From Bacillota bacterium (lineage in GTDB: Bacteria > Bacillota > Sulfobacillia > JAUYEG01), in the NCBI GenBank assembly GCA_040766985.1, contig JAXGPL010000009.1, forward strand, positions 56,963 through 120,962: a stretch of DNA of 64,000 nucleotides, read 5' to 3'. This document shows positions 5,107-33,030 of this stretch, one piece after another. The notes beneath the pieces were generated by a model. The model was not told where the DNA came from and ran no database searches. It saw only the letters and a list, made by a program, of their open reading frames with translations. Numbering within the stretch: position 1 is the stretch's first letter; every line of letters starts with the position of its first letter. The translations under genes and the position numbers were made by a program.

Positions 5107-5174
5107 GCTCAGCTCCGGGCTGGAGTGGGTAAGTCCGGCAACTCCGAGGCCTGTCCTCGGGGCACGCTAAGGAC

Positions 5175-6332: not shown

Positions 6333-6519
6333 CGTAACACGTCGGCGACCGGCCCCATTGCCCAGATATATCAGACAATTACGATTTGTCCTCTCACCTT
6401 TGAGTCAGTACCGCAAGTAATTGAAAAACATGGCGGAATTGCCCCTTAGAAAATGAAACCCCTTCCCGCACGACTCGTATCACTTCAGGTTTTCACACAC
6501 ACCGGACGCGAAGAAGAGG

Positions 6520-6744
6520 TTGGACATGATGCTCACACCCACCGAAGTCGTCCACGAAGGCACGATCGCCCCCGAGGTCGTCACCGGGCTGGTTAGAGAC
6601 CTCGGATCCCTAGGATACGAAGCACGGCCCGTACTCGTCCAACCCGGTGTCGCGGCCCGCGGCCCGAGGTGTGGCAGGGGATCCCGGTTCGGGCATGGCG
6701 ACCAGTGGCAAGTGGCGAGTTTCGGGACGCACAGCAACCTGTAG
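6520..6744 (+). CDS. small conserved protein A (copy 1) of duplicated cassette
   Basis: 74-aa ORF with an RBS (aagagg) behind an AT-rich island. Paralogous to ORF 20308..20523 along its whole length (EVVHEGTIAPEVVTGLVRDLGSL..GY...RCGRGSRF vs EVICDGSIGPRLATMMVRDRGQL..GY...RCALGTRL). Nucleotides are diverged, so coding selection is implied. Confidence 0.5.
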   Translation: MDMMLTPTEVVHEGTIAPEVVTGLVRDLGSLGYEARPVLVQPGVAARGPRCGRGSRFGHGDQWQVASFGTHSNL

Positions 6745-6804
6745 CAGCCGATACTACACAGTCGACACAATCCTCAGCACGTATAGCAGAAGGGAAGGAA
6801 GAAC

Positions 6805-6936
6805 ATGGACATCCAGGCGATCATCTCGAAGAAGCTCAACTCGTTCTACATTCCGAGCCTCAACACGACGATCACCACCGGCGATGATCCGACCGCCCAG
6901 GCCAATTGGCTTGACGGGACCCGGCTTTCCCGGTAA
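6805..6936 (+). CDS. small peptide B (copy 1): MDIQAIISKKLNSFYIPSLNTTITTGDDPTAQANWLDGTRLSR
   Basis: 43-aa ORF. Paralog at 20573..20710 shares the MDIQAI..KL start, a DDP motif and WLD near the C-terminus. Conserved RBS-like GAAGGGA.GGA upstream. Too short for the ORF track. Confidence 0.45.
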   Translation: MDIQAIISKKLNSFYIPSLNTTITTGDDPTAQANWLDGTRLSR

Positions 6937-7020
6937 GACACTGAAGGGAAGAACGACGCGGCACAGAACAGGAGAGCCCAAGGCTTTCCTGTTCTGCATC
7001 TTGGCCCGACGGAGGTGCAA

Positions 7021-7737
7021 GTGGTGACCGGCCTTGATGGCTTTCGCAAAGCGCTCAAAGCTAAGGGCAAGAAAGAGCACGTCATCGACGACCTCTGCGC
7101 CCGGGTCCAGGCATTTGAGTCAGCATTGGCAGTGGCGCGGATCCCGCTCAGCGAGGCCGGATTGGAGGACGTCCGGGCTTGGGGATCATCCACAGCGGGG
7201 CCCGGCGCAGCCGGCCCCTCCAAGAACGACCTGCGCGCGCTGGCTCTCTACTACAGCTGGGCGGGCCGTACCGAGTTCGCCAAGGAGCTCTCGCAGTTGC
7301 GCGAGGCGGCCATCGCCAAGACGCGCAAGACCTTTGCGATGCGCGCTTTCCGTGGGGTTGACCAGGACCATATGGACCGCCTCGAACGCGAGGGTATTGT
7401 GGACGTAAGGCAGATGATCGCTGCGGGCGCGACGCCGGCCTTGCGCCGCGCGCTGGCCGACCGCACGGGGATACCTCCGGCTGCCATCGAGGAGTACGTC
7501 AAGCTGGCCGACATCAGCCGCATCGGTGCGGTCAGGGAAGTTCGCGCGCGGTTGTACGTGGATGCGGGCCTGGATACCGTCGACAAGGTCGCCGCTCTTG
7601 ACGCCGAGGAGTTCCGGCGGATTGTCCTCGACCATGTCGAGCGTACGGGCTTTGACGGCGTCGCAACGCTGCCCAAGGAGGCGGCCAACGCAGTGGTGAC
7701 GGCCAGGGCGATTCCGCGGCTGGTAAAGTGGGAGTAG
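7021..7737 (+). CDS. DUF4332-like (helix-hairpin-helix repeat) hypothetical protein
   Basis: GGAGG RBS at 7011-7015 then GTG. Repeated GI.PA.IEEYVKLADISRIGAVRE / GLDTVDKVAALDAEEF motifs typical of DUF4332. Confidence 0.5.
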   Translation: MVTGLDGFRKALKAKGKKEHVIDDLCARVQAFESALAVARIPLSEAGLEDVRAWGSSTAGPGAAGPSKNDLRALALYYSWAGRTEFAKELSQLREAAIAKTRKTFAMRAFRGVDQDHMDRLEREGIVDVRQMIAAGATPALRRALADRTGIPPAAIEEYVKLADISRIGAVREVRARLYVDAGLDTVDKVAALDAEEFRRIVLDHVERTGFDGVATLPKEAANAVVTARAIPRLVKWE

Positions 7738-8207
7738 GGACCGGCCCTCACTCACGCCTCCCCGCCCGCCGGCCTCAGCCAAAACCTGTTCGTCGTACGA
7801 CAGACGGCCCTCCGGTCCATCGCCGCGTCCGGACTGCTCCAGCGCAGCGGCTGGCACGTCCGCTCTCTGCGGGTCATAGGCTCGCGATGCTCGCAGCAGT
7901 CCCTTTCCGCTCCCCGACCATTGGCAGTTCGTGGCGAGGAGAATGGTGGACCAGGTCCGACCCTTCCCCTCTTGTGGTGGGCTGACGAAGACATTCCCCT
8001 CGCCGGCGTGGCGGGGACTTCCCACCGCCTCTCTTGCGGCCCTGCCTGTCCGGACAACTTACGTGCGGCGGCAGGGCATATACTTGCCTCACGGCTGGGT
8101 TACGCTCTGATTGAAGGGAGCCTATCGACCTGCTGTCACTGATTCTCGGTATTCTGGTATCGGCTGCCATCGTCGTCAAAGGGGCGGATTGGTTCGTCGA
8201 GGGTGCG

Positions 8208-9068
8208 GTGTGGCTCGCGCAGCGGATTGGGATCTCCGAGTTGGCCTGCGGCGCGACGATCGTTTCCTTCGGGACCACGCTCCCTGAAGCCGCCGTATCC
8301 ACATATGCTTCGTGGTCCGGCCATCCTGAACTGGCTTTGGGCAACGCACTGGGTTCCTGCATGGCCAACGGGGCGCTGATTCTCGGCGTCTCGGTGGTTC
8401 TCGCAGGTTTCACCCGAGCCGGCCCCGATTTCCGGCGGCGCTGCCTTCAATTGCTGCTGGTGAGCGCCGGCATCTTCGTGGTTTCCAGGCACGGAGCGTT
8501 GGGGCGCCTCGCGTCGCTGGTGCTTCTTCTGGTCATGATCTGGTCCACGGCCAGCGCCTTGCGGAGTACAAATGATGGGAGGGTGGCCTCACGGCCGGCC
8601 GAATCCCCGCCAGGCGAGGAGCATGAAAAGGGCGGTCAAGTGCTCCGGCTCCTGGCCGGCTCTCTCATGATCGCCCTGGGCAGTCGCCTGTTGGTCGGTG
8701 CTGCGACGCAACTGGCGGCGGGGCTCGGCGTAAGCGAGTCGGTCATCGGCCTCTCCCTCGTCGCCGTCGGGACGTCACTCCCGGAACTCGCAACCGCCGT
8801 AACCGCGGGCGCAAGGGCACACGGACAACTGGCGCTGGGCAACGTGCTCGGCGCGAATTTCCTCAACCTGACGCTTGTGCTCGGGCTCGCCGGAGTGATC
8901 CGGCCCGTGCCGGTGGACCAGATCGCAAGAACCTCTTACCTGCCGATTTTTGCGCTGCTTACCTTGGCCCTGTGGGCGATGGCGAAATGGCGGCGCGGCT
9001 TCGGCAGGTTCCACGGAGCTATACTCCTGGGGGCCTATGCGCTCTACATCATGTCGTTGTGGAGGTGA
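8208..9068 (+). CDS. sodium/calcium exchanger (CaCA, YrbG-like) family membrane protein; true start probably upstream (~8124)
   Basis: Two alpha-repeat regions (GTTLPEAAVS..., GTSLPELATAV). The protein-like sequence continues upstream to ~8124 (LLSLILGILVSAAIVVKGADWFVEGA) with no canonical start, so a non-canonical start or an indel is likely. Confidence 0.8.
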   Translation: MWLAQRIGISELACGATIVSFGTTLPEAAVSTYASWSGHPELALGNALGSCMANGALILGVSVVLAGFTRAGPDFRRRCLQLLLVSAGIFVVSRHGALGRLASLVLLLVMIWSTASALRSTNDGRVASRPAESPPGEEHEKGGQVLRLLAGSLMIALGSRLLVGAATQLAAGLGVSESVIGLSLVAVGTSLPELATAVTAGARAHGQLALGNVLGANFLNLTLVLGLAGVIRPVPVDQIARTSYLPIFALLTLALWAMAKWRRGFGRFHGAILLGAYALYIMSLWR

Positions 9069-9074
9069 GGCTCA

Positions 9075-9097
9075 GCGGGCGCGGTCAGGCCGCCCGC
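9075..9097. terminator. GC-rich hairpin between convergent genes (possible bidirectional terminator)
   Basis: gcgggcg-N9-cgcccgc inverted repeat between the CaCA stop (9068) and the peptidase stop (9114). No clear U-tract. Confidence 0.3.
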
Positions 9098-9113
9098 ACC
9101 AACCCCCTGGCGC

Positions 9114-10310
9114 TCAGGCCCTCAGTTGGGCCGCGAAATCCGCCGCCACCGGTTGGCCGCTGATTTCTTCCAGCAGGCAAAGGAACCGCTCTGTGTTGTT
9201 CACTCCGCTCAGGTACATCTCGCGTAGGAGGCGGGACATCGCCGCCTCGCCGATCCGCGCCGCCAGGTCCCAGAGCAGGACGCAGCCCTTGCCATACAAC
9301 ACCGGGTAGGCCTTTTCGTGGCTGCGCGGCAGCCTGAAGATCGGCGGAAGTCCAGCCGTCGCCTCGCGCTTAGCGGCGATCAGCTCCTCTGCCGCGGCCG
9401 ACCCGTAGCGTTCTCTGACTGCCGCCAGCGCACTGTACTCAGCCACAGATTCGTTAAGCCAATCCTCCCACGTCGTCACGTCCGCGCGCCACCACCACAG
9501 ATGCGCAGTCTCGTGGCCGACCCACTTGAACATTCGCTCCGGCTCGATCTTCTCGGGAGTCAGTACAACCAGCCCCGGCCGAGTATAGCCCCCTCCCTTC
9601 TCACGTGGAGCGAGGACGATCCGCAACTGGCCGCTGTGCCGTCCGAACCACCTACCGAACCGTTCCATCACCCATTTGCCGTCGCTCAGAATGGCGGAAG
9701 CCAATTCCCCATCGGACGTCCGCGTGTGAACGACGCTCAACTCCGCCTCCCGTAGTTCGCGGAGCTCCGGCGCAGCAATGATAACGCAGTCGTTGCCCGG
9801 CCCGGCCGAAGCCAGGCGCCAGCCCTTGTTGCTGAACTGGATGGTGCCGCTGCCCGTGACCTGGTAACCCGGTATCGGCCCGATCTCGACGATGTACTCA
9901 AACGGCGCGTATGCCACGTCAAACGGAAACCAGGGGGTATACAGCCCCAGCTCCACCCATTCGGGCGTGAGCCGGTTAACCTCCCAGGTCTGGACGATAC
10001 CGAACGTCAGCCGGTACGCCATCTCAATCCGCAGGGAGGACCTCAGGGCAAGCCCGTCCTTAGGTCTCAGCACAAGCGTGGATGCCTCCTCGGCATATTG
10101 AGCCGGCGAGCCGGGCCGCAGTTCCCAGGTCACAGGAGGGTCGCATTGCAGGCGGAGGATATCCGCGCTCTTGTGCAGGGCAAACACTGCCTCGCGCGCA
10201 CCCTCGGGCCACTGCCATTCGACGGCCGCCGTGACCAAAGCAGTTCCCTTCGCAGGTTCGAGGTTGACCTCGAATCGGTAACGATTTGGCTCAGGCTTGG
10301 AGTGAGTCAT
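9114..10310 (-). CDS. M1-family-like zinc metallopeptidase (HExxH...E gluzincin)
   Basis: HETAHLWWW plus the downstream WLNESVAEY glutamate. Start chosen at the internal MTHSKPEP, which overlaps the upstream cupin stop (ATGA). The longer ORF to 10454 is probably an upstream extension. Confidence 0.7.
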   Translation of the reverse strand: MTHSKPEPNRYRFEVNLEPAKGTALVTAAVEWQWPEGAREAVFALHKSADILRLQCDPPVTWELRPGSPAQYAEEASTLVLRPKDGLALRSSLRIEMAYRLTFGIVQTWEVNRLTPEWVELGLYTPWFPFDVAYAPFEYIVEIGPIPGYQVTGSGTIQFSNKGWRLASAGPGNDCVIIAAPELRELREAELSVVHTRTSDGELASAILSDGKWVMERFGRWFGRHSGQLRIVLAPREKGGGYTRPGLVVLTPEKIEPERMFKWVGHETAHLWWWRADVTTWEDWLNESVAEYSALAAVRERYGSAAAEELIAAKREATAGLPPIFRLPRSHEKAYPVLYGKGCVLLWDLAARIGEAAMSRLLREMYLSGVNNTERFLCLLEEISGQPVAADFAAQLRA

Positions 10311-10666
10311 GCGGGCAGATAGTCCTCTCGTACCGGCGTGAACGCGTCGGTGATCACGCAGTCCTCGACCACAAGCGCGCCGTGCGGTTGATTGGGCCGG
10401 AAGATCATGCAAGTACCGGCAAGGCCGTCTATATCCCTCCCGTCCACGGTCCACCTTACCGATCCGCTGATGATGTAACTGGACTGCTCATGCGGGTGCG
10501 AATGGACCGGCAGGCGGGTACCCTGCTTCATGGCCGCCCAGCACTGCATCAAATTGGCGCCGACCGCCACGACGTGGACGGTGATGCCGGGGGCCAGTTG
10601 CTTCTGGCAGATGTACTCGGCGGGTTGGTGATCCACTTGATCAGCCTCCTTGGAGGAAAGGTCCAT
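10307..10666 (-). CDS. cupin domain protein
   Basis: 119 aa with a cupin two-His motif (PVHSHPHEQSSYIISG). Translationally coupled to the peptidase. Confidence 0.65.
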   Translation of the reverse strand: MDLSSKEADQVDHQPAEYICQKQLAPGITVHVVAVGANLMQCWAAMKQGTRLPVHSHPHEQSSYIISGSVRWTVDGRDIDGLAGTCMIFRPNQPHGALVVEDCVITDAFTPVREDYLPA

Positions 10667-10744
10667 GGCCGCATACCGCCTCCGGTGAAGGGGCGCCGGC
10701 GGGTCCCTTTGGTCTTCTCTTCCACTCCGCTCCGTTCCTCGTCT

Positions 10745-11167
10745 CTATTCCTCACCGGCGGCCGGCTCGATGGCCTGAGAGAGGGCGGCAATGGTTACCC
10801 CTTCGAGGACCTCAAGCATCCTCGCCTGGGCCTGGGCCCAGACGCCGCGCAGGGCGCACGAATTCCGGCTGGCGCACGCCTTCTCGTCGATCAGGCAACG
10901 TGTGATCCCAACCGGCCCGTCGATCAACTCGATGACTTGACGCAACGTGAGTGTCGCCGGCTCGGCCGCCAGGCTTACCCCGCCGCCGGCGCCCCGGCGG
11001 GTGGCGACCCATCCAACCTTGGCCATTGCCGCAACAATCTGCGCGATCAGAGTGGCGGGTATGGCCCGGTTTCTGGCGAGTCCGGCGGAGGTCAGGGCCT
11101 TTCCGGGAGCGGCCTGGGCGAGCTCGACCAGAGTCGCGATGGCATACTCGGCCTTGCGGCTGATCAT
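10745..11167 (-). CDS. Rrf2 family transcriptional regulator (IscR/NsrR-like)
   Basis: MISRKAEYAIATLVELA wHTH N-terminus and three Cys (CLIDEKACASRNSCAL). Start placed at the internal MISRK. Heads the cupin/peptidase operon. Confidence 0.8.
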   Translation of the reverse strand: MISRKAEYAIATLVELAQAAPGKALTSAGLARNRAIPATLIAQIVAAMAKVGWVATRRGAGGGVSLAAEPATLTLRQVIELIDGPVGITRCLIDEKACASRNSCALRGVWAQAQARMLEVLEGVTIAALSQAIEPAAGEE

Positions 11168-11382
11168 TTCGGTTTCCTCCATGGTCCTTTGGGTGGGAAT
11201 ATTACCAATATCGTTATAGATTGTTTCCCCCCTTACGGTCAACTCCGCCGGCCGCATAACCCACACCAGGCAAGTCGCCCCGCGCACGCCAAGCCCCGCG
11301 TCTCCAACAGGTAACTCCTTACCGGCGCGGAAATCGCCTCAATGGCAGGGGCAGCCCGGCTCCGCCCCACCGAAAGGAAGGA

Positions 11383-12144
11383 GTGAGTGCCGTGCAGCCC
11401 CTGCTCTATACCGATCTGGCAGAGTGGTTTCACCTTCTTACCCGGCCGGAGGACTACGCCGAGGAGGCAGGCATGTACGCACGGGCGATCCGCGACACCG
11501 TGCCCGGCGCCCGGGAGGTGCTTGAGCTTGGGTCCGGCGGCGGCAACAACGCGTGGCATCTCAAGCGGCACTTTCAGATGACCCTCAGCGATCTATCGCC
11601 GCAGATGATCCGGGTTTCGCGCCGGCTGAACCCGGATCTGGAGCATATTGAAGGCGACATGCGCAACCTCCGCATCGGGCGCACCTTTGATGTCGTCTTT
11701 GTCCACGACGCGGTGATGTATCTGACCGGCGAGGACGATCTGCTGGCGATGCTAGCCACAGCTAACGCGCACTTGGCGCCTGGCGGGTTGGTCTTGATCC
11801 AGCCGGATTGCACAAAGGAAACCTTCCGCGAATCCGCCGTTTCGGGAGGCCACGACGGGGGCGACGTTACTCCGCCCCAACCGGGCAGGGCTCTCCGCTA
11901 CCTGAGTTGGACCTACGATCCCGACCCCGGCGACACGACCTTCATCTCGGACTTCGCCTATCTGCTGCGGGAAGGGACGCACTCGGTGCGCGGCTTGACC
12001 GACCGGCATATCAACGGGCTGTTCCCGCGTGCGACATGGGTTGCGTTAATGGAGCATGCAGGTTTCGACGTCACGGTACGCCCCTTTGACCACTCCGAGG
12101 TCGAGGGGGTCATGGACACGTTCGTCGGACACAAACGCAGGTGA
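11383..12144 (+). CDS. class I SAM-dependent methyltransferase
   Basis: VLELGSGGGNNA motif I, DVVFVHDAV motif II, 253 aa. Confidence 0.8.
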   Translation: MSAVQPLLYTDLAEWFHLLTRPEDYAEEAGMYARAIRDTVPGAREVLELGSGGGNNAWHLKRHFQMTLSDLSPQMIRVSRRLNPDLEHIEGDMRNLRIGRTFDVVFVHDAVMYLTGEDDLLAMLATANAHLAPGGLVLIQPDCTKETFRESAVSGGHDGGDVTPPQPGRALRYLSWTYDPDPGDTTFISDFAYLLREGTHSVRGLTDRHINGLFPRATWVALMEHAGFDVTVRPFDHSEVEGVMDTFVGHKRR

Positions 12145-12158
12145 TACCGGCGTTACTG

Positions 12159-13193
12159 CTACCGGAGCATAGAGGCGACTCCGTGGTGGAGCAGGTACGC
12201 TATTGTGGGTACCAGCCCGGCGATGTTGGCGGCGGGCACCACGCCTATCTGCGGCACGGGGCCGGAGGAAGGTGAGCCCACAGGGCTGATAGCCACGTGG
12301 CCTGAGGCGACCTCAATCCCGGCGGCCGGTTCCACCTGACCGTCGCTTCCCCCGAGGGCCACGACACGGCCGATTGCGATGGGCGAGGGGAGGACCGACC
12401 TGCGGCGGAACGCAGGCGCTTCCCTGTCCTGGTAATAGGCCACGAGGTCGCCAACGGCGGGGCCGTTGCGCAGGCGCAGCACCGGCATGGTTGACCCGAC
12501 ACCCGCCATGGCGGTGCCGAGCCTGGGCAGTTGCTCCAACACGGAAACCACGGCCGGATCGGCGCCTAGCGCCGCGTGCAGGTACCAACCGACATCGGCG
12601 GTTTCCGCCTCCTGAATCAGACGGGCACTCCCCAGAGGCAGTGCCAGGAGCGACGCGATGAGGATGATTGCGAAGGCTCCTCCCCAGGTAACCAGATAGG
12701 CGGTCCGTATCAGCCGAAGGGTGAATACCCAGGACCAGACTGTGCCGGCGATGGCAAGGCCGGCGACGGCGTAGAACACCGCGCTCGCCAAGCCGATCGA
12801 GCCGGTGTGCAGGGCGGGAATGAGCACCCACTGGAGGGCTCCAACCAAGGCCGACGGCAGGCCAAGATACCCCCCCATGCGCATGAACGTAGAGAACCGC
12901 CCGCCCATCACCGGACTCGGCCCTGCACGCCATTGCAGCACGGCGGCGGCGTGCATGGTGAGCATGTCGACCAAGAACATCGCCGCCGCGCAGGCGATGC
13001 CGGCCAGCACCGATGCCCAGAGCGGCTGGGTGTGTCCGGTCGCGGCCTCAAGGACATGTCCCGCCGACCAGCCCCAGGCGCCGACGACCGCGGCCGTCGC
13101 GACCGACATCGGGATGGTGCCGTCTTCGCGCAGTTTCCACATCGTGGCCGAAGGCTTCCAAATCAGCCCCCGGATCGTCGTGTAGGGATTCAT
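12159..13193 (-). CDS. polytopic membrane protein (Yip1-like) with a Pro/Gly-rich C-terminal tail, co-operonic with the ECF sigma/anti-sigma pair
   Basis: Start at the internal MNPYTTIRG, overlapping the upstream gene stop (ATGA). Multiple TM helices. The ORF track's longer N-terminal extension runs into the neighbour. Confidence 0.5.
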   Translation of the reverse strand: MNPYTTIRGLIWKPSATMWKLREDGTIPMSVATAAVVGAWGWSAGHVLEAATGHTQPLWASVLAGIACAAAMFLVDMLTMHAAAVLQWRAGPSPVMGGRFSTFMRMGGYLGLPSALVGALQWVLIPALHTGSIGLASAVFYAVAGLAIAGTVWSWVFTLRLIRTAYLVTWGGAFAIILIASLLALPLGSARLIQEAETADVGWYLHAALGADPAVVSVLEQLPRLGTAMAGVGSTMPVLRLRNGPAVGDLVAYYQDREAPAFRRRSVLPSPIAIGRVVALGGSDGQVEPAAGIEVASGHVAISPVGSPSSGPVPQIGVVPAANIAGLVPTIAYLLHHGVASMLR

Positions 13194-13501
13194 TTGCCCA
13201 CCACACCCGAGGGCTCCGCTGCGCCGTTGACCGGTAGGACCTCCGCCCGCGCCGCGTATGCCGACCGGTCGGGCCCGCGGGCAGGCCGTACCTCGACCGG
13301 CTGCCCTTCGCACCATGCCCGGAGCGAGCGGTCGATCGCCGCAAACTCCCGGAGGCCGGACCGGGCTGCTGCGTCGGAACCGAGCAGCCGGCTGGCCCTG
13401 CGGAATGCCCAAGGCGGGGCCTGCTTGTCGACGATTGCCCAGAGCAGCAGGTCAACCGTGTCCGTAACTGCGCTGTGTGGCGTATCACCAGGCCGACGCA
13501 T
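13190..13501 (-). CDS. hypothetical protein, candidate anti-sigma factor (by position only)
   Basis: ~100 aa immediately downstream of and overlapping an ECF sigma gene. No zf-HC2 Cys/His motif. Confidence 0.35.
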   Translation of the reverse strand: MRRPGDTPHSAVTDTVDLLLWAIVDKQAPPWAFRRASRLLGSDAAARSGLREFAAIDRSLRAWCEGQPVEVRPARGPDRSAYAARAEVLPVNGAAEPSGVVGK

Positions 13502-14039
13502 TGCCGTCACCTCCGCCGGATGGTTCGGATAGCGCCTTCGCAAGCTTACCCCGTGCTGCCGCCAACCGTGACATCACCGTGCCTACCGGGCAGCCCAGCA
13601 GCCCGGCTATTTCGCGGTAGCGCAATCCCAGGAAGTAGTGCAGGACCAGAGGGACGCGCTGGGCGATGGGGAGTGCGCCGATTGCCAGGCGCAAGTCCAG
13701 ATGGTCGTCGTCGGTTTCTACCATGGATGATCCACCCTTGGCGACGACTGCATGGGCCAGCGCAGCCTCTTCGCGGTATTTCTTGCGGAGCCAATCCCGA
13801 AACCGGTTGCGCGCAACCTCCTTGAGCCAGGGCCGGAACGCCTGGGGGTCGTGCAGAGTGCTGAAATAGCGGCAGGCGACGGTCATCACTTCTTGCGCGA
13901 GTTCCTGACCCTCTTCGACATCCCCGGTGAGAGAGGCGCACATCCGCTGGACCCATGGGTAGTGGGCTTCGGCGAGGGCCTCGATAGAGCGGGCAGAGAC
14001 AGAAGCTGTAGCGGTTTTGCCGCCGAGGATCTCGGTCAC
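13485..14039 (-). CDS. RNA polymerase sigma-70 factor, ECF subfamily
   Basis: Region 2 (..RYFSTLHDPQAFRPWLKEVARNRFRDWLRKK) and region 4 (LPIAQRVPLVLHYFLGLRYREIAGLLGCPVGTVMSRL). Confidence 0.85.
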   Translation of the reverse strand: MTEILGGKTATASVSARSIEALAEAHYPWVQRMCASLTGDVEEGQELAQEVMTVACRYFSTLHDPQAFRPWLKEVARNRFRDWLRKKYREEAALAHAVVAKGGSSMVETDDDHLDLRLAIGALPIAQRVPLVLHYFLGLRYREIAGLLGCPVGTVMSRLAAARGKLAKALSEPSGGGDGNASAW

Positions 14040-14269
14040 GGCGAACCCCCTCCCAAACCCATTCTACTTACAGAGACGGACGGGGAAGGTGTTCTATTCG
14101 GCGAGGATTGCGTCTGCGTGGTAGTGCCAGAAGGACACACAGTCGTGTGGCGCGCTGTGGATCTCCCTCAGTTGACGGTGCGCCCTCAACGGGGCATTGA
14201 ACCCTCCGGCGCCGGGTGGACGCCAGTAGGGTCTTCTGCCCTCCAAGCCCGATGCAGCTGGGCCGGCCC

Positions 14270-14377
14270 TTACCACCAGCGGCGGTGGAACGGCGGACGG
14301 AACCACCAGAACCACGGCGGGAGAAAAGGCCAGCCGAAGAAGAACGGAAAGCCGAAGAACGGCCGCCTCCAGAACAT
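14270..14377 (-). CDS. 35-aa Trp/Phe/Pro/Arg-rich small ORF (MFWRRPFFGFPFFFGWPFLPPWFWWFRPPFHRRWW) with a perfect SD
   Basis: AGGAGGTG 7 nt upstream of ATG, TAA stop. Lies in an otherwise unassigned 415-bp spacer between the ABC-2 exporter operon and the ECF sigma gene. The underlying DNA is a purine-rich low-complexity tract, so a chance ORF is possible. Confidence 0.25.
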   Translation of the reverse strand: MFWRRPFFGFPFFFGWPFLPPWFWWFRPPFHRRWW

Positions 14378-14454
14378 GAGGGCACCTCCTATCTGCGGGT
14401 GACTACACTATCATGGTAGAACGCAGTTAGGAGTCGGTAACTCCTCCGGCAGGG

Positions 14455-15255
14455 CTAAAGCCGCGGCCCCAGGAGGTTGCCGGATTCGTACCGCCGCAGG
14501 CCCGCCCGAAAGGCGAGCTGTCCCGCGGCGATCCAGCCCACCGCGACGAGCCAGAGCAGGCCGAGGAAGGCGAGGTTTCCGTGACGCATGACCGTGACGG
14601 GGACGCTGTTGATAAAGCCCGCCGGGATCACCGTAAACAGCACCACCCGGACCGCACCGTCGAAGATTGCCCCGGGATAGGTGCTGAAGTGGATGACTGC
14701 GTTCTCCACCTGGTGCGCCAACGACTCGGCGCTGCCGACATAAAACGCCAGGCTGTGCGCTACGATGTTGAAACCCAGCAGCACACCGCCTACCGCCAGG
14801 CAACATAACCCGTACACGATCGTTCGCGGCCACGTCGGCCCGCCCCAGATCGCGAACACGACGAGGCCAAACACCAGGTCGCCCCAGCCGGTGGGAGCCG
14901 CCCGGCTCATCAGCGCATGCCAGAGCGGGCTCTTGGGCAGAACGAGGTAGTAGTCCAGTTGGCCGTTCGCGATCAACCCGGACAACTCGCGCCAGGCCCC
15001 GAACAGGACTGTGCTCAGGCCAAACCCGGCCGCGATGACGGCCCACAGCATCAGGACGTCGGCCCGCTCCCAGCCCTTGACCACCGGAAACCGGTAGAAG
15101 AACAGCGCCCAGTAGGCGAGCCAGAGCGAATTGTTGAGGAGCATGCCGAAGACCTGCGAGAAGAAGGCCGCCCGGTATTCCATCGCCATGGACAGGTTGG
15201 CCCCGAGGTATGTCAGGAGTAGCCGTGCGTGGCCGGCGAGGCGCTTACCCGCCAT
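14455..15255 (-). CDS. ABC-2 family transporter permease
   Basis: 266 aa, 6 TM, ABC-2 type. Last gene of a three-gene exporter operon. Confidence 0.7.
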   Translation of the reverse strand: MAGKRLAGHARLLLTYLGANLSMAMEYRAAFFSQVFGMLLNNSLWLAYWALFFYRFPVVKGWERADVLMLWAVIAAGFGLSTVLFGAWRELSGLIANGQLDYYLVLPKSPLWHALMSRAAPTGWGDLVFGLVVFAIWGGPTWPRTIVYGLCCLAVGGVLLGFNIVAHSLAFYVGSAESLAHQVENAVIHFSTYPGAIFDGAVRVVLFTVIPAGFINSVPVTVMRHGNLAFLGLLWLVAVGWIAAGQLAFRAGLRRYESGNLLGPRL

Positions 15256-16075
15256 TGACGTTCACCCGCCTGACCCCCGCCCTGAAGACCAGCGCGCATG
15301 TCAGTGCGGAGATCGCGAGCCAGGCCAGTTGCGTTATGACAATGCGGCCCGGCTGGAGGGTCTGCGCACCGACCAGAAGACGCGCCGGGGCATAGATGAT
15401 CATGCTCATCGGCAGCCAGGCGGCGATTGACCGCAGAAAGCCCGGGAATATCTCCAGGGGCAACATCATCCCGCCCAACAACATGAGCAGGCGCTCCTGG
15501 ATGAAGGCGAAGGGGCCGGTTTCCTCGACCCAGAATGCGAGGAGGCCGACCGCCAGACTGAACATGAAGTCGATCGACGAACCAAGCCACAGGACCACGG
15601 CGAAGATTCCGAGGTTGGCTACGTGGAATGGCGGCGGGCCCACCAGCATGCCCACCACCGCTCCACCCACGCAGAAGCTGAGCAGCCCTCGCGCCGCAGC
15701 CTCCCCCAGGGTCTGCGCGTAGTGAAACCAGACGTAGCTATACGGCCGCGCCAGGGTATATGCAAGGCTGCCCGATTTGACCTCGGCATCGATCCGGCCG
15801 GCAAGGCGGGGCCTGGCGAAGATGATCGATTCGGTTATCACCAGGTACCAGAGCATGTCCGGCAACGCGAACCCCTCGATCACCGTCGCACCTGTCACCC
15901 CGTATACCGTGCGCCAGAGGACCGTGAACACGTACAGCACCAGGACCAGAGTAAGGCAGCGGAGCAGGTACTCTCCGCGGTAGGCGATTGCTGTGGAGAA
16001 TCCCACTCTGCCAACGGCGAGGTATTTAGCCAGTTTACGAGGCATGACCGTTGCAGACGGCAGGTGACTAGACAA
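15245..16075 (-). CDS. ABC-2 family transporter permease
   Basis: 276 aa polytopic protein. Overlaps neighbours by 8-11 nt. Confidence 0.7.
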   Translation of the reverse strand: MSSHLPSATVMPRKLAKYLAVGRVGFSTAIAYRGEYLLRCLTLVLVLYVFTVLWRTVYGVTGATVIEGFALPDMLWYLVITESIIFARPRLAGRIDAEVKSGSLAYTLARPYSYVWFHYAQTLGEAAARGLLSFCVGGAVVGMLVGPPPFHVANLGIFAVVLWLGSSIDFMFSLAVGLLAFWVEETGPFAFIQERLLMLLGGMMLPLEIFPGFLRSIAAWLPMSMIIYAPARLLVGAQTLQPGRIVITQLAWLAISALTCALVFRAGVRRVNVNGG

Positions 16076-17135
16076 CGCGCTCGCCTCCCCCCGCTCTGTC
16101 CTGGGCCCCTCCGTCTCCGCTGCCGCTCACGCCGCCGGCTTCACCCTGGACGGCCGGGTCCGCCTGCCGGTAGATCATCCCGATTACGCGTTCGAGCGGG
16201 GGATCCGTAACGCTCACATCGAGGACGTTGTTGACCTCGAGGAGCCGCGCCACGACCTCCCTAATCGGCTGGACTGCCGCGTTGACCTCTAGCTTGATGC
16301 CCACCTGGGTATGCTTGAGGACTGTAACGCCGCCCATCTCCGGGACCGACCCAGGGCCGTCGAGCAATAGGTCGATCACCTTCGTGCGAAGCAGCATGTG
16401 TTTGAGGTGGGAAACCCGGTTGTCGTAGATTACCTGGCCGTGGTTGATCACGATCACCCGCCTGGCCAGTTCCTCGATATCGCCGACGTCGTGCGAGGTG
16501 AGGAAGACAGTCACCTGTTCCCCGCTGTTAAGCTCGCGCAGGGTCGAACGGATGGTCCGCTTCGCCAGCACGTCCAGGCCGATGGTGGGCTCGTCGAGGA
16601 ACAGGACCCGCGGCCGGTGGAGCAAGGCGGCAGCCAACTCGCACCGCATGCGTTCGCCAAGCGAGAGTTTGCGGACAGGGGTCGTGAGGTAGTCTCCGAT
16701 CCCGAAGACTCCAACCAACTCATCGCGGCGTGTGCGGTACGCCCGTCCGTCAAGCTCGTATATTCTCGCCAGCAGGTCGAAGCTGTCCAGTGGCGGGAGA
16801 TGATACCAGAGCTGCGACTTCTGTCCGAACACCGCTCCGATGTGGTATGCGAGCTGCTCGCGCTGAGTCCAGGGCCGGAGGCCAAGGACCGATGCAGAAC
16901 CCGCGCTGGGATGGAGGATGCCGGTGAGCATCTTGATGGTCGTGGACTTGCCGGCGCCGTTCGGGCCGATGAACGCCACCAATTCGCCCGGCTCAACCGC
17001 GAGGCTGACGCCGCGCACCGCCGGGACGTCACGGTACTCGGACCGGAACAGGGCCTGGACGCTGCCCCGCAGCCCCGGTTGCTTGACTCTGGTCCGGAAA
17101 GTCTTGCTCAACCCCTCAAGGACGACGGCCGGCAT
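16068..17135 (-). CDS. ABC transporter ATP-binding protein
   Basis: Walker A GPNGAGKST, signature LSLGERMRCELAAALL, Walker B VLFLDEPTIGLD, plus a C-terminal extension. Confidence 0.9.
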   Translation of the reverse strand: MPAVVLEGLSKTFRTRVKQPGLRGSVQALFRSEYRDVPAVRGVSLAVEPGELVAFIGPNGAGKSTTIKMLTGILHPSAGSASVLGLRPWTQREQLAYHIGAVFGQKSQLWYHLPPLDSFDLLARIYELDGRAYRTRRDELVGVFGIGDYLTTPVRKLSLGERMRCELAAALLHRPRVLFLDEPTIGLDVLAKRTIRSTLRELNSGEQVTVFLTSHDVGDIEELARRVIVINHGQVIYDNRVSHLKHMLLRTKVIDLLLDGPGSVPEMGGVTVLKHTQVGIKLEVNAAVQPIREVVARLLEVNNVLDVSVTDPPLERVIGMIYRQADPAVQGEAGGVSGSGDGGAQDRAGGGERVV

Positions 17136-17385
17136 GCGTTAGCCCTCCCGTGCGGCGCTTTTGGCAATTATAGCACTCGCTCGCATGGTCCGGGATAGGA
17201 CTGCGGCTATCTGTGCCGTGGCTATCCTGCTGAGGCTATCCATAGTGCAGGAGCTATCACCAACGGGTCCTCGGTGTAACCGCCGCAGGGGAAGGAATAG
17301 TGAGCGAGAAGCAGTAGGCACGAGTCTGATGGCATGCTGGACCTCGAGGCCGCCGGTCGGCCCGCTACGGGAGGTGCCGAATCGA

Positions 17386-18282
17386 ATGCCGGAACTCCCT
17401 GACATCACAGTCTACACCGAGCGCATCGCCGCCGTTGCGGGCGGCTCGCCGCTGCAGGCCGTCCGCATCGCCAATCCGTTCATTTTGCGCTCCGTCGATC
17501 CGCCGCCGGACAAGCTTGGCGGCCGCATCCTGCTCGGCGCGGGCCGTATCGGCAAGCGCATCGTCCTCGAGTTCAGCGATGAGTACTTCGCCGTGATCCA
17601 CCTGATGATCGCGGGCCGGCTTCATTGGCGCAGGCCGGCTGCGCCGATCCCCAGAAAGAACGGTATGCTGGCCTTCGACTTCGAGCCCGGCAGCCTTGTA
17701 TTGACCGAGGCCTCCACCAAACGCCGGGCTTCCCTTCACCTGGTCAGGGGGCGGGATGGTCTAGCCGCGTTCGACCGCGGCGGCGTAGATATTGTGCGCT
17801 GCAGCGCGGTAGACCTGGCCGCGGCTCTGCGCCGCGAGAACCGCACCCTCAAGCGTGCGCTCACCGATCCGGCGATCGTCGACGGCATCGGCAACGCCTA
17901 CTCCGACGAGATCCTCTGGCGCGCCAAGCTTTCGCCGTTCTTCCTCACCGGAAACCTGCCCGACTCAGACGTCGCCCGTCTGCACGCCGCCGCCCGCGAG
18001 GTGATCACGGAATGGGTTCTACGGCTGCGGGCGGATGCGGGAGACGGGTTTCTGGAAAAGGTGACGGCCTTCCGTACCGAGATGGCCGTGCACGGCAAGT
18101 ACGGGCGGCCGTGTCCCGCCTGCGGCGCCCCCGTTCAGCGCATCGTCTACGCGGAAAACGAAGCCAACTACTGCCCGGGCTGCCAGACCGGCGGCCGGGT
18201 CCTGGCTGACCGCTCGCTGTCCCGGCTGCTCAAGGACGACTGGCCGCGCACCCTCGACGAACTTGAACGGAAAAGGCCATGA
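17386..18282 (+). CDS. Fpg/Nei family DNA glycosylase / AP lyase
   Basis: N-terminal MPELPDI (catalytic Pro2-Glu3) and C-terminal zinc finger CPACGAPVQRIVYAENEANYCPGCQ. The ORF-track start at 17161 is an upstream extension. Confidence 0.85.
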   Translation: MPELPDITVYTERIAAVAGGSPLQAVRIANPFILRSVDPPPDKLGGRILLGAGRIGKRIVLEFSDEYFAVIHLMIAGRLHWRRPAAPIPRKNGMLAFDFEPGSLVLTEASTKRRASLHLVRGRDGLAAFDRGGVDIVRCSAVDLAAALRRENRTLKRALTDPAIVDGIGNAYSDEILWRAKLSPFFLTGNLPDSDVARLHAAAREVITEWVLRLRADAGDGFLEKVTAFRTEMAVHGKYGRPCPACGAPVQRIVYAENEANYCPGCQTGGRVLADRSLSRLLKDDWPRTLDELERKRP

Positions 18283-18667: not shown

Positions 18668-19078
18668 GTGAACGCTATGCTGTTAAGCGGACGGACGCGT
18701 GTATCGAGCCGAGGGCAAGTGGTGATCCCAAAAGCTTTGCGGGATGTGGCTGGGCTGGTCGAGGGCGATGAGGTTGACGTGCTCTTCGACGGCGAGAGGA
18801 TATCGCTCTCCCGTGTTGAGCCCGATCAAGCAAGTAACCCTGCGGCTCCGGCCGGCCCTTGCGCGGCCGACCGGCTCGCTGAGGCCCGCACTCGGTACGG
18901 TCCCAGGCGAAGAGCACAGGCGACGCACGGCATATTGGGCGCGACCCCTGTCTCCTCCATCTGGGCGGACCGCATCGCGGCAGTTGCCGCGATCAGGCAG
19001 CTCTCAACCGAGTTCTCGGGGACCTCCGCAAGTGAGATCCTTCGTGAGTCCCGTGACGAGCTTGAGAGGCGGGGGTAG
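18668..19078 (+). CDS. AbrB/SpoVT-type antitoxin (VapB-like) with extended C-terminus
   Basis: SpoVT/AbrB swapped-hairpin motif (RGQVVIPKALRDVAGLVEGDEVDVLFDG) directly upstream of a PIN gene. Confidence 0.6.
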   Translation: MNAMLLSGRTRVSSRGQVVIPKALRDVAGLVEGDEVDVLFDGERISLSRVEPDQASNPAAPAGPCAADRLAEARTRYGPRRRAQATHGILGATPVSSIWADRIAAVAAIRQLSTEFSGTSASEILRESRDELERRG

Positions 19079-19082
19079 CTAG

Positions 19083-19541
19083 ATGGAGCTGCAGCCGGCG
19101 GTATCCGTTGACGCAAGTGTAGGGGCCAAGTGGTTTTGGCCTGACGAGGACGATTGCGGTGAGGCCTTGGCCCTTCTGGAGCTGTTCGGCGCAGGCAGGA
19201 TTGCCATTATCGTGCCTGAGCTCTTCTTCTCTGAGATGGGCAACCTGTTGCTGTCGCCGCCCGTCGCTTACAGGTACCCGCGGCCACCGCCCGTTGCGTC
19301 GCTCCAAGAGCTCGACCGGCTGGGGCTGGAGAGGTTCTCCTCCGCGGGTCAGCTGCGCTCGGCGATGGCTTTTGCCCAGCACCTCAGAGTGTCATTCTAT
19401 GACGCCCTATATCTCGCCACCGCCGAGGTGGCCGGAGTACCCCTGGTCACCTGTGACCAAAGGCTTGTCTCGACGGTTTCCGGCCAGTTGGATTGGGTGA
19501 TGAGCCCCACGGCCGCCCTCACGCGGTTCTATCCCAAATAG
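19083..19541 (+). CDS. PIN-domain ribonuclease toxin VapC
   Basis: VDASVGAKWFWPDE (first acidic residue) and YDALYLATAEVAGVPLVTCDQRL (C-terminal PIN motifs). Confidence 0.75.
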   Translation: MELQPAVSVDASVGAKWFWPDEDDCGEALALLELFGAGRIAIIVPELFFSEMGNLLLSPPVAYRYPRPPPVASLQELDRLGLERFSSAGQLRSAMAFAQHLRVSFYDALYLATAEVAGVPLVTCDQRLVSTVSGQLDWVMSPTAALTRFYPK

Positions 19542-19992: not shown

Positions 19993-20307
19993 GTCTCTCC
20001 TCTTTCCGGCATAGATCAGCCCCCGCTCTCTTATGCGCCCGGAGCCCGGGTTCTCCTCTCTTGCAGGATCTCTCCGAATCGGAAACCCGCCGCTCACCTG
20101 AAGCGTAGTACTCGTGCACCGACCTCACTTCGTGCCGGCCCAACCTGATTCCCGGTCCCGGCAGGTGTCCCCGCGCAAGATGTTGTTCCCAACATTAATT
20201 TTTACGTTGTTGAGGGTGCATTTTTTTGAACAAGGCGAAACAAATCATCAACTACCCAGTAGTACAGAGCACAAGTCACTCCAACGAGAGGATCAGGAGG
20301 TAGCCCC

Positions 20308-20523
20308 ATGCTGAGGAACATCGAGGTCATCTGCGACGGCTCCATCGGCCCTCGACTGGCCACAATGATGGTTCGCGACCGGGGGCAACTCGCAGGGGTG
20401 GTTGAGCCGGCGATGGGATACGGACGACTCTACGCGCCGGGCACTCGATGCGCTCTCGGCACGCGGCTCGATCAAGCAGGAATGCACCACGCGGTCGAAT
20501 CCGGGGCGTCACAGCAGCTATAG
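20308..20523 (+). CDS. small conserved protein A (copy 2) of duplicated cassette
   Basis: 71-aa ORF with an AGGAGG RBS 8 nt upstream, behind an AT-rich island. Paralog of 6520..6744. Confidence 0.5.
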   Translation: MLRNIEVICDGSIGPRLATMMVRDRGQLAGVVEPAMGYGRLYAPGTRCALGTRLDQAGMHHAVESGASQQL

Positions 20524-20572
20524 CAGCGGCGACCCGATACGATATCCGGCAACCACGAAGGGACGGGACACA

Positions 20573-20710
20573 ATGGACATCCAGGCAATCGTCAACCGCA
20601 AGCTCGCTCGCAAAGGCAACGGCTTCAGCCCTGTATATGGTCAGACGCTCTTTGCCAACGACGACCCGCTCAGCCGATCGCACTGGCTCGACACGACAGG
20701 CCCCCGGTAA
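20573..20710 (+). CDS. small peptide B (copy 2): MDIQAIVNRKLARKGNGFSPVYGQTLFANDDPLSRSHWLDTTGPR
   Basis: 45-aa ORF, paralog of 6805..6936. The first 21 nt (ATGGACATCCAGGCAATCGTC) are near-identical to copy 1, and the RBS-like GAAGGGACGGGA is conserved. Confidence 0.45.
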   Translation: MDIQAIVNRKLARKGNGFSPVYGQTLFANDDPLSRSHWLDTTGPR

Positions 20711-21850
20711 CTGGTAGCAGGGTCATGCGCAATCAGGGAGGTGTGAGCCCTCCCCGATTGCGTCTTTACCTCCTTACCTGCCGGGCGTTCGCGGACGGCT
20801 CGCCGGGCATGCTGGTTCAATGCCGGCAGAGCTCCCTGGTCGAAAACGGAGATCCGCCAGAAGTACGCCTCCATGACCATCCGAAGCGCCCTTAGGGCGG
20901 CTTCTGGGGTCATCAGCCCCTCGCTTGCAGAGGAGCGGCCGCTGCTATCCCGGCAGTCTCTTGTGAAACCGTCCAGCAACGCCAGATAGCCCCGTAAGGG
21001 CAGTCGGACGGGCCGAATACCACCCGGCCATCGCACCTTACACTCTCGGAAAGCCAGTCGACCAGCACGAACCCTTGTCCCCCTCGATCTGCAGGTCTTT
21101 CCCAACCACGCCATGGCTCTTGCCCACGGAGAGCGTTACAATCGTGCCACCGGACTCAGCAGACGCCTCAAAGGCGGTTTCCGTGCGGTCTGGATGTGCG
21201 GGATCGTAGCCGGCCGCCTCGGCCCTAATAAAGCGCCAGTCTCTTCCCGGCATCAGCGTTAACAGGACCGACGCCAGATGGAATCCTGTGTCGATCCAGA
21301 CCCCGCCGCCGGAACGCTCGGGGTTGCGAAGCCACTCCCGGCCAAGAAGAGTGCCGGGGTCCTCAAGGATCCGTCCGCGCACCTCGCGGACCGGCCCGAT
21401 GGAGGCCACCAATTCGCTTCTGTGGCCGGTCAGAAATCGCGACGCGGGTTTTGCCAGATAGTGGTCCGCCACCCACAGTTGCGCTTGGGCCGTGCGCGCG
21501 AGACCAACGACCTGTTCTGCGTCCTTCAGCGTGTGCGCGATCGGTTTCTCCACAAGGCAAGGGCGGCGCGCCGTCTCCACTGCCCAGCGACTGTGGCGAA
21601 GGTGCAGGTTGTTAGGGGTTGCGACGATGACGCCAAGGTAGTCGCCCGGCGCCGGCACGCTGTCCAGTGAGCAGTAGTGGGCAATGACGTTGGGCGGTAG
21701 CGCGCTCCCCAAGCCCCGGGGGTCGACAACATCGGCCTGATAGCCCATCTCGCCCAGCGCGGGTAGAATCCGCTTGCGCCCAAGGTCTCCGGCTCCACCG
21801 ATGACCAGCAGTCTATCACCCATCCGCGCACCCTCCCCTGGAACGGACAT
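20641..21850 (-). CDS. Gfo/Idh/MocA family oxidoreductase (frame break near 21100; 3' end uncertain)
   Basis: N-terminal Rossmann GxGxxG (LLVIGGAGDLGRKRILPAL) and EKP motif (CLVEKPIA). The C-terminal family motif (EAALRALRMVMEAY) lies in a second frame (ORF 20641..21114). Confidence 0.65.
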
Positions 21851-31323: not shown

Positions 31324-31854
31324 CTAGTTGTCGCCCTGGTTGAGAAGGCCGGCCTTTTCAAGGGCGCCGCGTACCGCGGTGGACAAGGGGATCGCCACGA
31401 TCAGCCCAGCAGCGGAGGTCATCAGCGACGCTGGAGCGTTGCCCAGCGCTGCCTCCCAACGGCCGATCACGGCGGACCACGCCACGAGGTATCCGACGAG
31501 GGTCCACGCCGCTCCAGCGACGCACGCGATCAGGTTGAGGATGATGCTCCTCCCCCTGGCGCCGCCCGAGTGAGCGACGGAACCGACGACAAGACCAGCG
31601 ATGCCCTTGATCACGAACGACCAGAGAGTGTAGGGCGAGAACCCCATGATGATGTCGAAGAACGCGGAGCCGATCGCCCCCGCGTATCCGGCGTAGACAC
31701 CGCCGAACAGGATGCCCGACGTGAATATCGCGGCGCTCCCCAGGTGGACCATCGCACCGCTGCCGAAGGGAATCTTAATCATGGTGGCGATGATCAGCAG
31801 GGCAGACAGCATGCCGATCACAGCCATGTCGCGGACCGTGAGTTTGGGTTTCAC
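31324..31854 (-). CDS. ECF transporter S (substrate-specific) component, likely vitamin B6 (PdxU-like)
   Basis: 176-aa, 5-6 TM protein with an S-component-like N-terminus (MKPKLTVRDMAVIGMLSALLIIATMIKIPFG). Immediately downstream of pdxK. Confidence 0.65.
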   Translation of the reverse strand: MKPKLTVRDMAVIGMLSALLIIATMIKIPFGSGAMVHLGSAAIFTSGILFGGVYAGYAGAIGSAFFDIIMGFSPYTLWSFVIKGIAGLVVGSVAHSGGARGRSIILNLIACVAGAAWTLVGYLVAWSAVIGRWEAALGNAPASLMTSAAGLIVAIPLSTAVRGALEKAGLLNQGDN

Positions 31855-31867
31855 AGCCGATACCTCC

Positions 31868-32698
31868 TCAAGATCTGCTATCAGCAGTTGTGCCGTCGCA
31901 CGCCAGGAAGCTCAGGGCCTTTTCCAGAAGGACGCCTTCCCGCGCCGGTGCCTGGAGCTGATGTGTCAGGGCGATCGTGTGTGACAGGAACCTGGTCGCC
32001 AGCGCGGCGCTTGCCGCAAGGCGGTTTCCGGATAGAAGTCCTCCGATGAGCACGCTTGCGAAGATGTCCCCGGTACCAGGGTAGTTGACTGGTAGGCGGT
32101 CGAAGGGCACTTGCCACAGCCGGCCCTCTCTTCGGCTATAGGCGATGTTCGCGTGCCGTCCGTCCATTGTCGGCACGCTCTTGACAACTACCGTTTCGGG
32201 ACCGAGGTCGGCGAGCCGCCCGGCCATGTCCAGGATGGCTGCATCGGGCATCGGATCATCGGAGAACGGCTGACCGAGCAGGAAACATGCCTCGGTCAGG
32301 TTGGGTGTGACAATGGTCGCCCTGGCGACGAGCCGTCCCATCAGATGCTGCATTTGTGGGGTGTAAGTGCGGTAGAGCTTGCCGCCGTCGGCCATCACGG
32401 GATCGACGACGACGAGTTGACCTGGTCCTCCCCGGAAACCGTCGATGAACCGTCCGACCACCTCGATCTGCCGGGCCGACCCCAAAAGGCCGCTGTAGAT
32501 GCAGTCAAAGCTTAGGCCGATCTCCTGCCAGTGAGCCGCGTACCCCTCCATGCCGTCAGTGAGGTCAACGAACGTCATGTCTCCGAACCCACCGGAATGC
32601 GTACTCAGGATGGCTGTCGGGAGGGGACATACCTGAACCCCCATCGCTGAAAGGACCGGGATGATCACTGTCATCGAACATCTCCCAAAGCCCGCCAT
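31868..32698 (-). CDS. pdxK: pyridoxal/pyridoxine/pyridoxamine kinase (PdxK/PdxY, ribokinase superfamily)
   Basis: KVAAIHSMAGFGRCSMTVIIPVLSAMGVQVCPLPTAILSTHSGG (PdxY N-terminal pattern) and C-terminal GTGDIFASVLIGG (anion hole). Start at the internal Met. The longer ORF to 32890 is an upstream extension. Confidence 0.8.
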   Translation of the reverse strand: MAGFGRCSMTVIIPVLSAMGVQVCPLPTAILSTHSGGFGDMTFVDLTDGMEGYAAHWQEIGLSFDCIYSGLLGSARQIEVVGRFIDGFRGGPGQLVVVDPVMADGGKLYRTYTPQMQHLMGRLVARATIVTPNLTEACFLLGQPFSDDPMPDAAILDMAGRLADLGPETVVVKSVPTMDGRHANIAYSRREGRLWQVPFDRLPVNYPGTGDIFASVLIGGLLSGNRLAASAALATRFLSHTIALTHQLQAPAREGVLLEKALSFLACDGTTADSRS

Positions 32699-33030
32699 CG
32701 AGTGAATCGCCGCGACCTTCGGTACCGCGCTACCGGACAAGAAGACCCCTCCGCGCAAAGCAAAATGCCCCGGGAGAAACCCCAGGGCATAGGTCGTCAG
32801 GCGATCCATCGGAACGCAGTGAGACTGCGTTTGGTGAAAGTCTCCGCCCATCCAGACTTTACTGCCGGTACCGGATTCACACCGGTTCAACTGCTGGGGC
32901 TGTTGGACTTGTCCCCGCCGCCAGGCGAGGCATCACCGCCGATTGGGAATTGGGCCATAGCCCTCACCCTGCCCTGAAGACTCCGCACTCACATTATAGC
33001 GCAAGAGGTTCCTTCTCTGCAGGCGCTTCT

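Follow-up and report, generated by a model that had tools for sequence, protein, structure and literature searches.

Known targets of sigmaW, an ECF sigma factor of Bacillus subtilis, are mostly membrane or envelope proteins. The B. subtilis promoters of this class combine a GAAAC or GGAAC -35 element, a spacer of 16–17 nt and a CGTA -10 element at a fixed distance from the first gene, and among the operons they serve are short ones with a terminal hairpin. The sigmaW consensus is TGAAAC at -35 and CGTA at -10 (PMC5758882). Precursors of ComX and of other RiPPs are short proteins without a signal sequence, in which the N-terminal part is conserved and a Trp close to the C-terminus is invariant. 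Type II toxin-antitoxin pairs consist of two small adjacent genes, of which a genome may have multiple copies. In an ordinary bicistronic operon, lastly, translation of the second gene starts from a purine-rich ribosome-binding site of its own, which closes an unstructured spacer, and the frame of this gene relative to the first varies.

The window, by which we mean the whole 64 kb stretch of DNA analysed here, contains two copies of a cassette composed of two small genes, A and B (Table 1), which shares something with each of these systems. The original prediction held that nucleotide conservation across the A-B junction reflects an RNA-level signal, for example translational coupling, an RNase site or a small RNA. 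We propose instead, at a probability of roughly 0.7, that each cassette is a self-contained two-gene operon, and that the junction conservation consists of the ribosome-binding site of B together with its conserved N-terminal codons.

Table 1. Features of the two A/B cassettes, in coordinates of the window
Feature	Position	Strand	Remarks
ECF/sigmaW-like promoter motif, copy 1, GAAAC-N16-CGTAT	6455-6480	+	46 nt before the ATG at 6529
A1	6526-6744	+	72-aa paralog of A2, TAG stop
Shine-Dalgarno-like block GAAGGGAAGGA before B1	6789-6799	+	sequence comparison
B1	6805-6936	+	43-aa paralog of B2, TAA stop
Terminator-like hairpin after B1	6964-6996	+	z=-3.64
Distal ECF-like motif, copy 2, GAAAC-N17-CGTA	20082-20107	+	about 200 nt upstream of A2; same distance in ortholog L001
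Proximal ECF/sigmaW-like motif, copy 2, GAAAC-N16-AGTA (ortholog: CGTA)	20237-20261	+	46 nt before the A2 start
AGGAGG Shine-Dalgarno of A2	20295-20300	+	seen in the sequence, kept in L001
A2	20308-20523	+	71-aa protein-coding gene, TAG stop
A2-B2 spacer	20524-20572	+	49 nt; conserved only in the 3' purine block
Purine block GAAGGGACGGGA, read as B2 ribosome-binding site	20557-20568	+	sequence comparison
B2	20573-20710	+	45-aa protein-coding gene, TAA stop; N-terminal MDIQAI and C-terminal DDP....WLD conserved
GC-rich terminator-like hairpin after B2	20727-20763	+	-28.2 kcal/mol, z=-2.96

The positions first assigned to A1, B1, A2 and B2, and to the AGGAGG before A2, were all correct, and the claim that the second cassette is a copy of the first is borne out by the paralogy of the proteins, which are 31% (A, E 1e-10) and 40% (B, E 2e-10) identical in amino acids. 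Profiles of A and B find exactly two copies in the window, and no third. Also upheld was the reported identity of 19 of 21 nucleotides at the start of B, the remainder of the cassette being far more diverged (0.47–0.63), with the exception of 14/19 matches (0.74) over the last 15 nt of A plus its stop. An 18-mer from this block, ATGGACATCCAGGCNATC, is found at 6805 and 20573 and nowhere else in the window, with 0.2 occurrences expected from shuffles. The sequence TAGCAGC...GATAC does follow both A stops as described. The purine-rich element said to be common to the two copies is indeed shared, though its exact pattern is GAAGGGA.GG.A rather than GAAGGGA.GGA. The reading frames were likewise as first reported, B1 sharing the frame of A1 (offset 0, TAGs in this frame at 6742 and 6784) and B2 being in frame +1.

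Homologous loci proved to be few. Apart from the source genome itself (NCBI GCA_964430585.1), word-indexed searches matched a single related organism, represented in Logan assemblies (SRR31125240/43), in which each cassette has an ortholog (L004/L005 for copy 1, L001/L002 for copy 2). An exhaustive HMMER search of 1.84 billion representative proteins with the A alignment recovered only five small A homologs, namely the two ortholog clusters and three more (P0009, P0010 and P0013, of 70, 73 and 71 aa); two other matches to the A profile were discarded as repetitive false positives. The contigs carrying these three homologs have a B-like ORF of 44–51 aa placed 63–70 nt 3' of A. A scan of metagenomes yielded one additional locus (L015) and a scan of genome contigs with the B profile no confirmed locus, and the A and B profiles found nothing further in 95 fetched loci. 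In total, six distinct further loci were recovered: two orthologs, three distant homologs and one close relative of one of these. The gene pair and its architecture are conserved across loci, in that at every one a B-like ORF follows A after a spacer of 49–70 nt, and these ORFs share an N-terminal [MV][DN]I[QN]AII.[KN]K and a C-terminal D[DN]P....W[LF][DE].

In other Bacillota, 80 loci linked to dnaE had neither A nor B. DnaE itself has its closest relatives in Bacillota MAGs, at only about 55% identity, which places the host in a deep, uncultured Bacillota lineage, and judging from these searches the family appears to be limited to a small number of uncultured Bacillota. The window and L006 both have dnaE upstream and fpg close by, and an M1-like peptidase and a methyltransferase are found near copy 1 as well as near the L011 cassette. 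Neighbours otherwise differ, and no gene consistently adjoins the cassette across loci. This loose synteny points to vertical inheritance and not to mobility.

A promoter-like motif is conserved in position upstream of A. The pattern G[GA]AAC-N16/17-CGTA is present upstream of copy 1 and in L004, L001, L010, L011 and L015; copy 2 has AGTA for CGTA, and L006 has GGAAC-N16-CGTT, 130 nt upstream of A. Measured from the end of the -10 element, the distance to the A start is 40–46 nt in seven of eight loci, and the surrounding upstream DNA is only 0.46–0.57 identical in paralog or distant pairs and 0.63–0.70 in orthologs. A strict form of the pattern has a single match in the 64 kb, at copy 1, with 0.28 expected. 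No sigma70 promoter was called upstream of A. Transcription from an ECF-type, sigmaW-like promoter is predicted as probable, and the motif agrees with the B. subtilis promoters in its -35 and -10 elements, spacer and distance to the first gene, as does the cassette with that regulon in its Bacillota setting and short, hairpin-ended operon. The differences are that the leading T of the sigmaW -35 element is missing in most cassette loci, that no homology of A or B to a known member of the regulon was detected, that A and B, unlike its usual targets, contain no hydrophobic segment (maximum 15-aa Kyte-Doolittle hydropathy ≤1.25), and that the window yielded no cognate sigma/anti-sigma pair. Nor does the window hold an ECF sigma gene with a matching autoregulatory motif; a 219-aa ORF with a Sigma70_r4_2 domain at 56617–57276 has no such promoter motif.

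Conservation at the junction was measured as identity per segment in ten locus pairs. In the 5' part of the spacer identity was 0.38–0.53, which is background, in paralog or distant pairs and 0.65–0.73 in three ortholog pairs, against about 0.46–0.69 and 0.69–0.89, respectively, in coding DNA. The sole exception came from L011/L015, in which the C-terminal half of A is weakly conserved and its coding identity (0.69) fell below that of the spacer (0.73). The first 21 nt of B reached 0.76–0.90 in paralog or distant pairs and 0.95–1.00 in orthologs. The junction is therefore no more conserved than the flanking coding DNA, barring these 21 nt and the Shine-Dalgarno-like block, the very outcome under which the original prediction was to be given up. 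Across loci this block reads GAAGGGA, AAGGGG or GAGAGGA and ends 9–10 nt before the start of B; at every locus B has its own block and an ATG or GTG start. The motifs after the A stop fare less well, TAGCAGC becoming TAGATTGC in the copy-2 ortholog and GATAC becoming CAACAC or GAAAC in orthologs, and distant loci reading TAGA.. or TAGG..; TAGCAGC...GATAC is best read as similarity left over between the paralogs, without wider conservation.

There is no conserved secondary structure at the A-B junction. RNAalifold over eight junctions, which supplied the structure prediction with covariation that had been suggested as a check, gave 0 consensus pairs and an energy of 0, and single-sequence folds of the junctions compared with shuffles had z-scores between -1.7 and +1.0, those of the window being +0.6 and +1.0. 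Taken with the background identity of the spacer 5' part and the loss of the motifs in orthologs, this speaks against an RNA-level signal spanning the junction. Translational coupling in its classical form is argued against by the A-B distance of 49–70 nt, which is too long for it; the frame is not conserved either.

Conserved RNA structure is found at the 3' end of the operon rather than at the junction. A stable GC-rich hairpin lies 3' of B in all six loci folded (z -3.0 to -6.7), and between copy 1 and L004 the stem is kept by a two-sided change, from GAACAGG/CCTGTTC to GAAAAGG/CCTTTTC. In the window, the sequence behind one hairpin is CATCTTGG and behind the other a TCTTTACC tail, the first T of the latter being paired into the stem by the fold, and only in L006 is there a clear T-run behind the stem. 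A consensus terminator scan did not call these hairpins, since most of them lack a T-run. Neither cassette has a match to Rfam at gathering score, and at E≤1 the only match was a spurious one to a miRNA, situated on the terminator hairpin. The folding results suggest that transcription probably terminates at this GC-rich hairpin just after B.

As to the proteins, A and B from four lineages had no family match in Pfam, NCBIfam, PHROGs or PADLOC; profile searches returned nothing, or unrelated families only at E>0.004, and searches against PDB profiles nothing significant. Public sources leave A and B unnamed or list them as 'hypothetical protein'. AlphaFold2 models of A, run with four and then with seven sequences, reached pLDDT 51 and 54, and comprise an N-terminal beta-hairpin (residues 2–23, pLDDT about 82) followed by a Gly/Arg/Ala-rich tail with pLDDT mostly below 50, which is probably disordered. 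A Foldseek search of PDB with the A model, itself of low confidence, gave no match at E≤0.001.

Two alternatives would give the junction a role beyond that of a spacer. One is that A and B are made as a single fusion, by read-through of TAG or by programmed frameshifting over the spacer, as might be imagined from the TAG which ends all eight of eight A genes and from copy 1, where B is in frame with A. The relative frame of B, however, is 0, 2, 1, 2, 0, 1 and 1 in seven distinct loci (L015 being outside this tally), differing even between orthologs (0 in copy 1 and 2 in L004; 1 in copy 2 and 2 in L001), and this variation excludes such a fusion, in keeping with the earlier statement that simple read-through is not conserved. 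Copy 1 also has a second in-frame TAG, and B everywhere has its own Shine-Dalgarno-like block and start codon. TAG is, moreover, the commonest stop in the window (23 of 47 long ORFs), which makes its presence at the end of A unremarkable, and no significance is attached to it here. A fusion is accordingly very improbable. The other alternative places an RNA element, such as a structure, an RNase site, an sRNA or antisense target or an enhancer resembling a 'downstream box', across the junction or the start of B, so that nucleotides rather than the peptide are kept. The N-terminal peptide of B is itself conserved (M-D/N-I-Q-A-I-I), and given identical amino acids and the codon usage of the window (GAC 0.67, ATC 0.70, CAG 0.74), the probability of at most one synonymous difference in codons 2–6 is about 0.2, so that the 19/21 identity is in itself unsurprising. 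What can be said for such an element is that the first 21 nt of B are 76–100% identical in every pair, even where A coding DNA is about 50% identical, and that at B positions 2–7 C or G is the last base of all 24 of 24 codons with two- or three-fold degeneracy, compared with 107/144 (74%) in the rest of the cassettes (five independent lineages pooled, Fisher p=0.0015). This C/G excess is modest, and as the sole remaining support would favour a nucleotide-level constraint slightly; selection for preferred codons at the initiation region may explain it about as well as an RNA target. A small spacer hairpin is common to L011 and L015, with one-sided changes between them. Weighing against the element are the third position of the Ala codon within the block, which varies freely (G, A, C) while the amino acids are conserved, the spacer 5' part at background identity, the want of consensus pairs and of any Rfam match to the junction even at E≤1, the failure of orthologs to keep TAGCAGC and GATAC, and the window junctions themselves, which fold worse than their shuffles. 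We consider the RNA element unlikely, and just as unlikely the compound proposal that A and B form an undescribed, ECF-sigma-controlled small soluble pair and that the first seven codons of B double as an RNA-level control element, be it an sRNA or antisense target or an initiation enhancer.

The remaining alternatives concern what A and B are. That the ORFs might be spurious and the locus a non-coding RNA or a decayed repeat is suggested by their small size, by their belonging to no known family in a high-GC genome prone to long spurious ORFs, and by an antisense ORF of 118 aa which spans copy 2. Yet dN/dS is well under 1 for both genes (A1 0.35 and B1 0.24 against ortholog L004; A2 0.07 and B2 0.18 against ortholog L001), and ortholog comparisons show an excess of third-position changes, the differences between A2 and L001 by codon position being 8/6/31. 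These low ratios, together with the concentration of substitutions at third codon positions, identify A and B as real protein-coding genes, and both are under purifying selection. ORF lengths, order and amino-acid motifs are also kept where the remaining DNA is at background identity. The antisense ORF is ruled out by the phase of substitution: from its coordinates and the per-position counts, its third codon positions fall on second positions of A2 and first positions of B2, and these are less variable than the third positions of the two genes. There is thus hardly any room for the view that the ORFs are spurious. A further suggestion is that B is the precursor of an exported or modified peptide, a ComX-like Trp-modified pheromone or other RiPP, with A as its helper or partner. 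B has the appearance of one, being about 44 aa long, with a conserved 'leader-like' N-terminus and an invariant Trp within the C-terminal DDP....W[LF][DE], a motif which we take to be loosely like the C-terminus of ComX and regard as a lead only. B, though, has no match to Pfam ComX or to another family even at E≤10, and has neither signal peptide nor hydrophobic segment; compared with the leader, its core shows no hypervariability; and the cassette has no conserved neighbour that could modify, transport or cleave a peptide (a ComQ-like or different tailoring enzyme, a transporter or a protease), the neighbours differing by locus. The 71-aa A, for its part, bears no resemblance to known RiPP recognition elements. 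No test supported the resemblance to ComX, and a precursor role for B is doubtful, somewhat more so than the RNA element.

The likeness to type II toxin-antitoxin pairs extends to the two small adjacent genes, for which co-transcription is inferred here, and to their occurrence in more than one copy. It ends with the spacing, A and B being 49–70 nt apart and not overlapping, with the lack of any toxin or antitoxin match for either in PADLOC, Pfam or NCBIfam, with the syntenic rather than mobile position of the cassette (dnaE...fpg region), and with the predicted ECF promoter, which stands in place of an autoregulated sigma70 promoter. From an ordinary bicistronic operon, on the other hand, we can point to no mechanistic difference; the second gene with its own purine-rich ribosome-binding site, the unstructured spacer and the varying frame are all there, and the oddities are the strongly conserved first seven codons of B and their uniform use of preferred codons. 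The unit is probably a previously undescribed and unannotated two-gene small-protein operon, duplicated in this genome.

Under the operon reading, transcription would start from the predicted ECF-type promoter (G[GA]AAC-N16/17-CGTA), which lies some 45 nt before A. A would be translated from its own AGGAGG independently of B, and B from its own Shine-Dalgarno-like block, 9–10 nt before its start, at the end of the unstructured spacer of 49–70 nt. The transcript would end at the strong GC-rich hairpin just after B, and the expected products, A (about 71 aa) and B (about 44 aa), are proteins that are small, soluble and inherited together. As a working view we infer that these may act together, probably as a complex, in a stress-induced, ECF-controlled response; the A:B interaction itself is purely conjectural, the models of A standing at pLDDT 51–54.

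Since the junction signal is an ordinary one, composed of a ribosome-binding site and conserved N-terminal codons, the lead which it offered can be closed. Should the codons of B after all have a dual role, this would explain the fixation of C and G in five lineages which have otherwise diverged to background identity. The cassette bears on no long-standing open question. What the work has yielded as a by-product is a duplicated and unannotated family of small-protein operons, for which relatives were detected in no more than a handful of uncultured Bacillota, and with it a further conserved pair of small proteins (about 71 and 44 aa) for the under-annotated small proteome. In organisms without genetics, the cassette could serve as a marker or reporter of an ECF stress regulon.

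Around the cassettes of the two small-protein genes A and B, gene order across distant lineages is one of loose synteny, as seen when nucleotides 681–18282 of the window were compared with L006 and L011, two of the more distant cassette loci. An upstream dnaE and a nearby fpg (Fapy glycosylase) are common to the window and L006, where the cassette is flanked by GerA and CdAMP_rec genes. Counterparts of the M1-like peptidase and methyltransferase found near copy 1 adjoin the L011 cassette. In the terminator-like hairpin after B1 (6964–6996), pairing is retained relative to the orthologous L004 (about 1097–1133) through a two-sided change from C-G to A-U.

TAG ends A in all eight loci (window 6742 and 20521; L001, L004, L006, L010, L011 and L015). 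Seven of the B genes are complete, and all of these stop at TAA except that of L015, which stops at TAG; B of L010 runs past the contig end and was left out of this count. Among 47 heuristically selected long ORFs of the window, which has a GC content of 62%, TAG is likewise the commonest stop (23 TAG, 16 TGA, 8 TAA), a preference unusual in bacteria. Against this TAG-rich background, the stop pattern of A and B departs from chance only weakly, if at all.

Immediately 5' of copy 2, a MazE/AbrB-type gene and the ORF that follows it, both also present in a further locus, L003 (1275–2193), form a possible toxin-antitoxin pair; the second ORF (152–170 aa) had no Pfam match. Elsewhere in the window, a riboflavin transporter gene lies approximately 1 kb downstream of an FMN riboswitch on the same strand, with one ORF between them. 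No sigma region 2 was detected in the 219-aa ORF carrying a Sigma70_r4_2 domain, whose neighbours are the 1453-aa and 1156-aa proteins.

Features located in the window
Feature	Position	Strand	Details
M1-like peptidase	9114–10454	-	
Methyltransferase	11383–12144		
MazE/AbrB-type antitoxin-domain gene and next ORF	18668–19541	+	PF04014 (precomputed annotation)
Second ECF-like motif	20082–20107		GAAAC-N17-CGTAGTAC
ECF-type riboflavin transporter S-component gene	31324–31854	-	PF07155
Intervening ORF	31868–32890		
FMN riboswitch	32836–32985	-	Rfam RF00050, 66.9 bits
1156-aa protein	45850–49320	-	SLH-domain/molybdopterin-oxidoreductase
1453-aa protein	52089–56450	-	13 MBG (YGX) repeats
219-aa ORF	56617–57276	-	Sigma70_r4_2, residues 71–122

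Copy 2 possesses a second promoter-like ECF-like motif approximately 200 nt upstream of A2, which is kept at an unchanged distance in its ortholog L001. The motif hints that copy 2 may be served by two promoters in tandem or may carry an extended 5' leader.
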